Origin: Shigella phage sb3
Length of the DNA: 64,000 nucleotides
Reading direction: 5' to 3' (one strand)
Sequence record: PQ666541
Shown: in pieces, positions 55,250 through 57,345 of the stretch
Position numbering within the stretch: the first letter of the stretch is position 1
Layout: each line of letters begins with the position of its first letter
Made by a program: the position numbers and the translations under genes
The notes under the pieces: model-generated
What the model saw: only the letters and a program-made list of their open reading frames with translations
What the model was told of the DNA's origin: nothing
Databases searched by the model: none

Positions 55250-56218
55250 TTATTTCAGAAGAGTAACCTCAGCAATTTCTTCCCAACCGTTTTTGTCGGT
55301 CATAATAAAGTCAGCAAGATAAAGAGCAGTACGCAGTGAAACATTGCGTAAACGATTAACATTAACTTTCATCCATGATAATGCTTTATAAGTTTCTTCA
55401 TCAGAAAGACCGCGCTTTTGCATCATGTCAGTTGAAAGAATAACATCTTCAACTCTGACCATAATTTCTTCATTAGTGTGAACACCTAAATCCAAATAAA
55501 CCGAGCGGGACACTAATGCTTGTAAATGTGGAGCAAGTTTAGTACCACGGTCTAATTCGCGGTCAATGTCAACGTTTGTGATAAAAACAATCGTTCCTTT
55601 AAATTCAAATTCACGGTCAATGCCTTTTTCTTCTAAGTAAGAAGACGCAGTGCTCCAGCAGACTTTACGGGTCTCTCCGGTGTCCAGAGCAGCTTTTAGA
55701 AGATTAAGAATGTCCATATCAGAGAAAACATCCACATCATCAATCAAAAGGACAGAATTCTCTTCACGATTATTCCAAAGCTGCTCATAAAGACCAATAC
55801 CAGAGATTTTACCATTAATGCTTTTATATTCAATGTATCCAATATCATTTGCTTTATTTAAAGCTTTATCTAAAGAATACGTTTTACCAATACCTGCTGC
55901 GCCAGAGATAATTAATGAACGAATATTTCCGTTAATAATACCATTCGTCATCATTCCCATAACATTAAATCTTTTATTAATGCGGGTTTTCATATCTTCA
56001 TATGATTCTTTAACTTCTTCAACTTTTACACCATCATATGAAATATCTGATTTGTAAACCCAAACACCGCGACGTTTACCGTCAATTTCAACAAAAACTT
56101 TACCATCTCCTTGTGCATCTACCGGAGCATTATCTGGGAACCATTCGCCTAAGAGCTCAAAAGTTCCAGAGATTTCTTTACCGAAGTAGATACCCTTATT
56201 GATAGTTACAGTTTTCAT
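55250..56218 (-). CDS. AAA+/P-loop ATPase, hypothetical
   Basis: 322 aa from ATG at 56218; Walker A GAAGIGKT and Walker B LLIDDVD. Confidence 0.65.
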   Translation of the reverse strand: MKTVTINKGIYFGKEISGTFELLGEWFPDNAPVDAQGDGKVFVEIDGKRRGVWVYKSDISYDGVKVEEVKESYEDMKTRINKRFNVMGMMTNGIINGNIRSLIISGAAGIGKTYSLDKALNKANDIGYIEYKSINGKISGIGLYEQLWNNREENSVLLIDDVDVFSDMDILNLLKAALDTGETRKVCWSTASSYLEEKGIDREFEFKGTIVFITNVDIDRELDRGTKLAPHLQALVSRSVYLDLGVHTNEEIMVRVEDVILSTDMMQKRGLSDEETYKALSWMKVNVNRLRNVSLRTALYLADFIMTDKNGWEEIAEVTLLK

Positions 56219-56250
56219 TTTATTCCCCAAATCCGTATCAGTTGATAGTT

Positions 56251-56282
56251 GTATAGTACCATAAAGCTTTATGCTTGTAAAC
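56251..56282 (-). promoter_or_regulatory. Early promoter module
   Basis: TTTACA-N17-TACTAT. Confidence 0.55.
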
Positions 56283-56304
56283 CGTTTTGTGAAAAAATTT
56301 TGAA

Positions 56305-56330
56305 ATAAAAAAGGGAGCCCGAAGGCTCCC
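56305..56330 (-). terminator. Rho-independent terminator
   Basis: gggagcc-cgaa-ggctccc hairpin followed on minus strand by TTTTTTATTTC. Confidence 0.6.
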
Positions 56331-56332
56331 TA

Positions 56333-56578
56333 TCATTTATAATAACTTCGGTGGTTTTCAAGATAAACCCTCTCAAGGAAGTCATCCCAGAACCCCATGT
56401 CTACTTTTTGCTGCATACCGTTCTTAGAAGCTTCAATGGATGCTGCTTCTACTTGATCGACCACATCTTCCAAAAACTCTTGAACCGTTTTAAATGGATG
56501 TTTACCCAGCTTCACGTCGAGAATAAATGAAGCATCTTGAAGTGGATAGACCAAGTCACCAGTTTTGTAAATTTCCAA
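56333..56578 (-). CDS. ORF lacking an ATG start; likely frameshifted C-terminal continuation of the upstream nucleotidyltransferase-fold gene, or a separate TTG-initiated gene
   Basis: 81-aa frame opens right after a stop inside the upstream gene's last 14 codons; no in-frame ATG until residue 55; -1 frame relative to 56608-57345. Confidence 0.35.
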   Translation of the reverse strand: MEIYKTGDLVYPLQDASFILDVKLGKHPFKTVQEFLEDVVDQVEAASIEASKNGMQQKVDMGFWDDFLERVYLENHRSYYK

Positions 56579-56607
56579 TAGTTGGAGTCCACCACGACAA
56601 GCATGAC

Positions 56608-57345
56608 TCAGGGCTTTCCAGTCAATGCCCTCATTCGCCTCAGCCTTACGAGCACGTCGCCGTATTCAGCATCTAATTTGTTCAGTGACTGCTTAAGCTC
56701 AATAAGAGAAAGCGTTGTCTGATATTTACGACCCAACACCGTATAGAATGTTTGTGGGCCTGTTTTCTCATGATTATGGAATACCCATTCACAGAATTCG
56801 TTTTCTGGAAGACGATGCTTAATATCTTCTACCTTAGTCCGACGCTGCTTAATGGAACTGCCTTCTTGATAATCAACCCATTGTTCAGGAATCTGGTTAA
56901 CAATTTCCAATACACCACGCAGTGCAGCCAATCGAGAACCCTTAACGCCGTATTTAGAAGCTTGCTTGCGAACATATCCTAAATAGGATTTCATGTTAGT
57001 CGTATAAAAACGAGAACGATTGTCTTGAATAAATTTCCATACATCAGGCAAATCAGATTTAACTACCAGTTCAGGTGGAGTGTGGAGCATATCCAATGCT
57101 ACAGTTTCACCATCTGCTGCTAATTTAAAGAAATATTTAAGACTGTATAGTTCATGGTCAATATCATCTTTAGTGTTTTTAGATGATGTGTTGTTAGTGT
57201 TTTTACTCATATGCTCTTTAACATTTCCGATAAGAATATCGCGAGCAGGAGGAACAAAGATTTCTTTAAAATCTACATCAGATTCTGGAGTAGAAGTTCC
57301 ATAAAGATGACTACCAAAATAGCTTTTCATTACTGTTTTCATCAT
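56608..57345 (-). CDS. Nucleotidyltransferase-fold protein (Pol-beta-like GS...DxD motif), hypothetical
   Basis: 245 aa; N-terminal GSHLYGTSTPESDVDF matches the minimal NTase signature. Confidence 0.55.
   Translation of the reverse strand: MMKTVMKSYFGSHLYGTSTPESDVDFKEIFVPPARDILIGNVKEHMSKNTNNTSSKNTKDDIDHELYSLKYFFKLAADGETVALDMLHTPPELVVKSDLPDVWKFIQDNRSRFYTTNMKSYLGYVRKQASKYGVKGSRLAALRGVLEIVNQIPEQWVDYQEGSSIKQRRTKVEDIKHRLPENEFCEWVFHNHEKTGPQTFYTVLGRKYQTTLSLIELKQSLNKLDAEYGDVLVRLRRMRALTGKP

Follow-up and report, generated by a model that had tools for sequence, protein, structure and literature searches.

The RlaP proteins of Pseudomonas (PfRlaP and PaRlaP) add one or two nucleoside monophosphates to RNA 3'-OH ends, prefer Mn2+, favor the broken end of a cleaved tRNA mimic, and raise the aminoacylation of repaired tRNA that was previously short of a nucleotide; the role of the bacterial proteins is probably tRNA repair (bioRxiv 10.64898/2025.12.29.696909). 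In the PfRlaP structure, one wall of the substrate cleft is built from the C-terminal helical domain, with the last helix packed against the nucleotidyltransferase (NTase) domain, and the same study placed NrdC.11 of phage T4 in the RlaP family, in cluster 5 of its sequence similarity network, as a protein "of unknown function" (bioRxiv 10.64898/2025.12.29.696909). Here, we describe the nrdC.11 locus of Shigella phage sb3 within the first 64 kb of its genome (sequence record PQ666541; these 64,000 nucleotides are called the window throughout). In this record, nrdC.11 is divided between two open reading frames (ORFs) at a one-base gap, and its neighbor, nrdC.10, encodes an ATPase.

A one-base gap divides nrdC.11 between two reading frames

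The window is a segment of a T4-like (Tequatrovirus) genome in which the genes of the nrdC.10 and nrdC.11 region lie on the minus strand. The 2.4-kb region is matched across 80% or more of its length by about 480 phage records, with a best identity of 97.5%, and the 24 kb around it share 96 to 97% identity with Shigella phages sb2, KNP5, and pSs-1; sb2 and pSs-1 are among the closest relatives of the phage. On the basis of position and similarity, we assign 56333-57345(-) to T4 nrdC.11 and 55250-56218(-) to T4 nrdC.10. The region thus named consists of two known T4 accessory genes, and its gap is already present in pSs-1, where it was annotated as two ORFs.

The original prediction, made from the window alone, had called a P-loop ATPase gene followed by a gene of the Pol-beta-type NTase fold, with an 81-codon frame opening inside the last 14 codons of the latter. 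The 81-codon ORF exists (56333-56578), and its relation to the first ORF differs from that description. The NTase ORF, 56608-57345(-), has its stop codon at 56608-56610. The second frame is open from 56665 to 56333, and the two overlap over 56608-56668, that is, over the last 19 sense codons and the stop of the first ORF. The TTG at 56578 with which the 81-codon ORF begins lies 30 nt downstream of that stop. In alignments with phages IME339, SP1, and sb2 and with 10 metagenomic or GenBank loci, a single gap appears behind coding nt 688, where GGCGAACGT of the relatives has become GGCGACGT on the coding strand of the window. Insertion of one A restores a protein of 336/337 amino acids (aa), 6 residues of which differ from the sb2 ortholog.

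The ortholog alignment that the original prediction had proposed as a check finds a single protein, about 330 aa long, that extends across both frames. In T4, in about 500 further phage records, and in more than 1,000 diverse clusters of the family, the protein is in one piece of roughly that length. nrdC.11 is a single coding sequence (CDS) of 332 to 336 aa in every relative examined except pSs-1; these relatives were T4, IME339, SP1, sb2, and the ten GenBank/metagenome loci, which encode an NrdC.10 identical to that of the window. The best 120 NrdC.11 homologs are all 303 to 343 aa long. A profile search of 1.84 billion cluster representatives returned 3,662 relatives, of which the top 150, with few exceptions, align as one stretch over positions ∼1 to 330; the listed family representatives are single-frame, a few partial fragments apart. 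Profile searches, also proposed earlier, gave a consistent result. Both pieces match a single family, phrog_388 (positions 35-234, E 1e-83, and 260-339, E 1e-29), and the break is therefore not a chance ORF pattern. The Pfam family PF10127 (RlaP) matches the 245-aa fragment at 40.9 bits and the repaired protein at 43.9 bits, with a cut-off of 23, and is precomputed for all 120 listed homologs. The Pol-beta signature consists in the window of G10-S11, D22-V-D24, and a third Asp, D84; across 35 diverse family members, G10, D22, and D24 are invariant, while S11 and D84 are at least 90% conserved. The NTase call therefore stands. Taken together, these data make it very probable that the two ORFs are one gene with a nonprogrammed 1-nt gap.

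TABLE 1 Positions of features at the nrdC.11-nrdC.10 locus, numbered along the window
Feature	Position	Strand	Description
nrdC.11 5' fragment	56608..57345	-	244/245 aa; PF10127 and phrog_388 matches, alignments
nrdC.11 3' fragment, -1 frame	56333..56665	-	110 sense codons plus stop; conserved C-terminal helical part
81-codon ORF from TTG	56333-56578	-	Inside the 3' fragment of nrdC.11
Missing-base site	56657..56658	-	Codon 229 GAA (Glu) reads GA-; gap after coding nt 688
Family-invariant motif YGERAxxAxxNEGIDWKAxSHAxRAG, residues 227-252	56588..56664	-	Disrupted from residue 229 on
Terminator-like hairpin AGGGAGCC-TTCG-GGCTCCCT plus T-run	56302..56331	-	Consensus scan; annotated terminator in phage SP1
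Promoter-like match	56281-56253	-	Before nrdC.10; consensus match only
nrdC.10 ortholog	55250..56218	-	322 aa; N-terminal beta-rich domain, AAA+ core, helical lid
Walker A GAAGIGKT, residues 106-113	55880..55903	-	Read from sequence
Walker B LLIDDVD, residues 156-162	55733..55753	-	D160 and D161 invariant in 34 homologs

The break falls in an invariant motif of the family

Residues 1 to 228 of the first ORF are authentic and hold the Pol-beta NTase core and the middle insertion. Its last 16 residues (DVLVRLRRMRALTGKP) are out-of-frame sequence, and the break at codon 229 places the C-terminal 108 residues of NrdC.11 in another frame. The site lies in the YGERA... motif, the second block of invariant residues in the family. 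Across the same 35 members, which share 32 to 54% identity, G228, R230, A234, D241, H247, and R250 are invariant and A231, N237, G239, W242, K243, A244, and A248 are at least 90% conserved. All of these after G228 are lost from the first ORF, and motif residues up to ∼256 are encoded in neither ORF, because the TTG ORF begins at about residue 257. A C-terminal helical domain on the same polypeptide, expected of an RlaP protein, is missing from the record as written and is regained with the one-base repair. Because the motif is lost, and because the C-terminal domain walls the substrate cleft in Pseudomonas RlaP, the 244-aa product is very unlikely to be active. As written, the record would yield an inactive 244-aa stump and an untranslated or orphan 3' piece.

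A PDB sequence search with NrdC.11 returned no match. An AF2 model of the intact ortholog P0121, built on an 18-sequence alignment, had a mean predicted local distance difference test score (pLDDT) of 60, with the NTase domain below 50, and was not used for a fold search.

Phage pSs-1 carries the identical gap

The identical base is missing from pSs-1 (NC_025829/KM501444). The two genomes have the same start, are ∼100% identical over the first ∼4 kb, and share 95 to 98.5% identity over the rest. The pSs-1 record already annotates the same ORF pair as two CDSs, gp109 ("nucleotidyltransferase," 244 aa, NC_025829.1 56389-57123) and gp108 (hypothetical, 81 aa, 56114-56359). Over the 1,013 nt of nrdC.11, pSs-1 and the window differ by 55 substitutions (5.4%), and 16 nt upstream of the gap one flanking haplotype gives way to another. 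With a 34-nt probe spanning the gap, pSs-1 was the only match in 50,697 phage records. Scans for the exact pattern of the deletion allele found it in neither IMG/VR nor JGI metagenomes (0 hits each), and neither the 245-aa nor the 244-aa truncated product has an exact entry in a 153-billion-gene index.

A gap private to the window had been suggested by a 71-nt probe, which found no 100% match in 375 records, and by the extra base present in 13 relatives; the annotation and alignment of pSs-1 overturned that reading. The 71-nt probe missed pSs-1 because of nearby substitutions. Over the same probe, ZCEC15 matches the window at 71 of 72 positions, the sole difference being the gap.

Downstream of the gap, the window and pSs-1 differ at 12 sites, 9 of them third positions in the restored frame (binomial p 0.004). 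The ratio of nonsynonymous to synonymous differences (pN/pS) for this comparison is 0.07 in the restored frame and 1.2 to 3.4 in the other two frames. When the window is compared with 11 intact relatives, the downstream ratio is 0.02 to 0.08 in the restored frame, the same as upstream. Nothing after the break points to decay.

Origin of the two-frame arrangement

The arrangement could in principle serve a function, and the two explanations of this kind that we weighed are improbable even when taken together. If nrdC.11 were functionally split, a 244-aa NTase core would be accompanied by an 81-aa protein made from TTG 56578 or by termination-reinitiation, and the downstream frame would be under selection. 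Purifying selection is seen in that frame between the window and pSs-1, the TTG stands close behind the upstream stop, and the pSs-1 annotators called both ORFs. However, the selection signal is explained equally well by an artefact or by recombination, residues 229-243 (including the invariant R230, A234, and D241) are destroyed and appear in neither product, the GGTGGA-N9-TTG context, judged by reading the sequence, is a weak Shine-Dalgarno-like one, and thousands of family members are single polypeptides. The layout of two genes with a TTG start, which the original prediction had entertained, occurs in one other record only, that of pSs-1, with the same 1-nt deletion, and we hold a functional split to be very unlikely. 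Programmed or fortuitous -1 ribosomal frameshifting within 56608-56668, which would produce a full-length fusion protein, is scarcely credible. In its favor, the stop is immediately preceded by an A_AAG tetramer (56613-56616), and a moderately stable hairpin starts from the stop codon (-23.7 kcal/mol, z -2.4; 4 of 200 shuffles fold as well). Against this, the interval holds no X_XXY_YYZ heptamer, the hairpin sequence is plain coding DNA in relatives with an intact gene, an Rfam search gave no recoding element, and the two-frame arrangement, present in 1 of >500 relatives (pSs-1), is not conserved. A slip at A_AAG would still swap residues 229-242, with the same three invariant residues, for out-of-frame residues; a slip anywhere but at the deletion would still garble the invariant motif, and no slip site saves the residues after codon 229.

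The frame break is an ordinary lesion or a sequencing error, with no new mechanism, and both a frameshift pseudogene and a sequencing indel survive from the original prediction. The sequence comparisons by themselves lean slightly toward a recurrent base-calling artefact, located in the record rather than in the phage, to which we give about an even chance; a homopolymer undercall from AA to A would have recurred in the same context as in pSs-1. Consistent with an artefact, the lost base is one A of an AA run, pSs-1 was sequenced on an Ion PGM and assembled with CLC, and for both carriers of the gap nearer sister alleles are intact; the window has such alleles in ZCEC15 (98.1% upstream) and ECO07P2 (97.8% downstream). 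The 55 differences between the two carriers in this gene, the haplotype switch so near the gap, and the lack of decay behind it point the same way. In addition, the window has lost a further single base from a T-run at position ∼4367, which changes a coding frame and was unseen in the relatives checked. Several points weigh against an artefact. Two separate deposits carry the gap, which excludes random error; therefore, only a systematic, context-specific error or a reference-influenced consensus could explain it. The window differs from pSs-1 by other indels of 1 to 6 nt and by an unmatched segment of ∼200 bp and is therefore no naive copy of a pSs-1 reference. Aside from the gap, the window and pSs-1 assemblies are clean across 64 kb, every other long gene being unbroken, and two As make a short run for a homopolymer error that reaches the consensus. 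Finally, nrdC.11 is dispensable in T4, in which the nrdC.11-mobD.3 block can be deleted, so that a real null allele would be viable. Somewhat short of an even chance, but a serious contender, is a deletion that is real: a very young frameshift null allele of a dispensable gene, circulating in pSs-1-like Shigella and Escherichia coli phages and shared by the window and pSs-1 by descent, with short-patch recombination having shuffled the flanking polymorphisms. In addition to the deletable block, the identical lesion in two independently deposited and closely related genomes speaks for such an allele, as does the finding that most differing sites hold alleles known from intact relatives, which recombination of standing variation predicts. 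A real allele would nevertheless need recombination breakpoints close to a marker that is neutral or deleterious, at most 16 nt away in one direction and ∼60 nt in the other. The gap is not in the other pSs-1-like genomes checked (sb2 and KNP5), the searches of phage records, metagenomes, and the gene index described above added no carrier beyond pSs-1, and the sequence downstream of the gap shows no sign that constraint has relaxed. A real frameshift might also be advantageous, with loss of the C-terminal half of NrdC.11 selected in pSs-1-like Shigella phages; such would be the case, for example, if a host defence sensed NrdC.11 or its RNA products. Spread of an advantageous loss over haplotypes by short-patch recombination would explain the identical lesion, the divergent flanks, and the absence of decay, and we nonetheless regard it as very unlikely.

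These considerations bear on annotation. We recommend that 56333-57345 be annotated as one nrdC.11 gene with a frameshift, as a pseudogene or as sequence to verify, and not as two genes. A frameshift present in two deposited genomes is not automatically real if one of them comes from a platform prone to homopolymer errors. Should the deletion prove real, the pSs-1-like phages would amount to natural null mutants of nrdC.11, and such mutants could be used to probe whether phage RlaP counters nucleotide-excising anticodon nucleases such as RloC.

nrdC.10 and nrdC.11 do not appear to form a module

The ATPase of the original prediction is present with both Walker motifs, and both genes lie where they were placed; their order is reversed, since on the minus (coding) strand the NTase gene precedes that of the ATPase. 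Transcription would thus meet nrdC.11 first and nrdC.10 second. The terminator-like hairpin between the two genes begins 2 nt past the nrdC.11 stop, and a promoter-like match precedes nrdC.10 (Table 1). An Rfam match to L20_leader (window 56297-56460, minus strand) that overlaps the 3' end of nrdC.11 and this hairpin was below threshold (28.1 bits against a gathering score of 58.7, E 0.011) and was taken as chance.

The proposal that the ATPase and NTase genes make up a signalling or anti-defence module was not supported in the form given. Some relatives carry extra small genes between nrdC.11 and nrdC.10, and nrdC.10 homologs in Aeromonas phage 31 and in a Vibrio contig have no RlaP gene within 4 kb. 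In a published comparison of six T4-like genomes, nrdC.10 was found in three and nrdC.11 in five to six (PMC1524935). PADLOC defence models gave no match for any of the three ORFs, and in a test for CD-NTase (SMODS) membership, Pfam gave RlaP, not SMODS. The evidence is against nrdC.10 and nrdC.11 as an obligatory pair, and we advise against reporting the two genes as a candidate module for signalling. The spacer between the genes is an insertion hotspot: the extra genes encode an 89-aa protein and an 87-aa DUF4031 protein (locus L005, 2402-2931), a 66-aa protein (locus L010, 2743-2943), and a 99-aa protein in Acinetobacter phage Acj9 (locus L017, 3613-3912).

A counter-defence role for nrdC.11 alone, via RNA repair, is plausible from its family. 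By analogy with Pseudomonas RlaP, intact NrdC.11 would extend RNA 3'-OH ends by one or two nucleotides and would in this way replace what RloC-type anticodon nucleases had excised; tRNAs trimmed by the anticodon nucleases of the host would then be resealed by T4 Pnkp and RNA ligase. The RNA-repair genes of T4 are located elsewhere in its genome. Within ±3 kb of nrdC.11, no RNA ligase gene was found in the window or at 10 related loci, where the neighbors are T4_y05I, DUF7203, Y05B-D, and similar genes.

The full ATPase ORF, 55250-56230(-), encodes 326 aa when read from a TTG; relatives annotate the ATG at 56218 as the start, which gives 322 aa. NrdC.10 has the Walker A (GxxxxGK[ST]) and Walker B (hhhhD[DE]) patterns of AAA+ proteins and an alpha-beta core followed by a helical lid; G106, A107, G109, G111, and K112 of Walker A are invariant in the 34 homologs. 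Pfam AAA families all scored below their gathering thresholds for NrdC.10, the best being AAA_14 (23 bits against a cut-off of 27), and a PDB sequence search returned only a designed helical protein (E 0.11).

Other observations in the window and in related records

Within nrdC.11, window positions 56889-56932 (coding nt 414-456) hold nine clustered differences from pSs-1 and from all 12 fetched relatives. The protein variant at residues ∼143-147 (GVLEI) agrees with distant phages such as P0139, and the patch looks like a small recombinant tract from another lineage. The T-run deletion in 3810-4628(-), at ∼4367-4371, is accompanied by an adjacent G>A relative to sb2, pSs-1, and the 12 best phage matches. 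It fuses the small ORF upstream of denB (pSs-1 gp13, 109 aa) in frame with denB into a 272-aa ORF, and denB keeps its own ATG. At 11700-11897, ∼200 bp have no megablast match at the equivalent place in sb2 or pSs-1; the flanks are collinear, and the segment is a local replacement or insertion. A 7-nt insertion at 63430 relative to sb2 was considered as an oddity of the window and rejected. Sixteen records match the window there at ≥99% identity, at least 12 of them exactly, and sb2 is the deviant.

Two related records look like error-laden assemblies and poor references. In sb4 (PQ666542.1, 1-50000), essential genes are in pieces (topoisomerase, rIIA_1/2, modA, modB, nrdD_1/2/3, gp44, and endonuclease VII), and sb4 was not used as a reference because of its many split genes; in sb2, the DNA polymerase gene is split (29880-32576). 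Across deposited T4-like genomes, many nrdC.10 and nrdC.11 orthologs are named "thioredoxin," and one is named "HNH homing endonuclease." The "thioredoxin" labels appear to be a name propagated from nrdC; Pfam gave no thioredoxin match for NrdC.10 or NrdC.11. A scan of the NCBIfam library gave no matches.

Comparison with known systems

Compared with generic AAA+ ATPases (RFC, ORC/Cdc6, DnaA/Hda, MoxR, NtrC-type, and RuvB), NrdC.10 has top matches that span many clades at 10 to 17% identity, and for this reason it is assignable to no AAA+ clade. Its N-terminal beta domain (residues 1-61) is unmatched.

The closest counterpart of the window gene is T4 NrdC.11 (NP_049709, 336 aa), an ortholog with the same place in the genome, having the mobD-region genes on its upstream side and nrdC.10 on its downstream side; UniProt names it [quoted passage not shown] After repair, the window protein carries the same motifs as T4 NrdC.11; as deposited, the gene is one base shorter than that of T4 in codon 229 and hence occupies two ORFs. 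In T4, the HNH homing endonuclease gene mobD lies immediately upstream of nrdC.11, whereas the window has no mobD there. In its place, 57342-57803(-) encodes a 153-aa predicted membrane protein (phrog_944/phrog_22816), and the stop of this gene overlaps the nrdC.11 start by 4 nt.

With the RlaP family of PF10127, NrdC.11 has in common a Pol-beta NTase N-terminal domain, the three acidic residues, and a helical C-terminal region. It differs from that family as follows: the Pfam match spans just profile positions 23-141 of 249, a T4-type beta-rich insertion occupies residues ∼140-210 of NrdC.11, and the phage locus has no adjoining RNA ligase gene.

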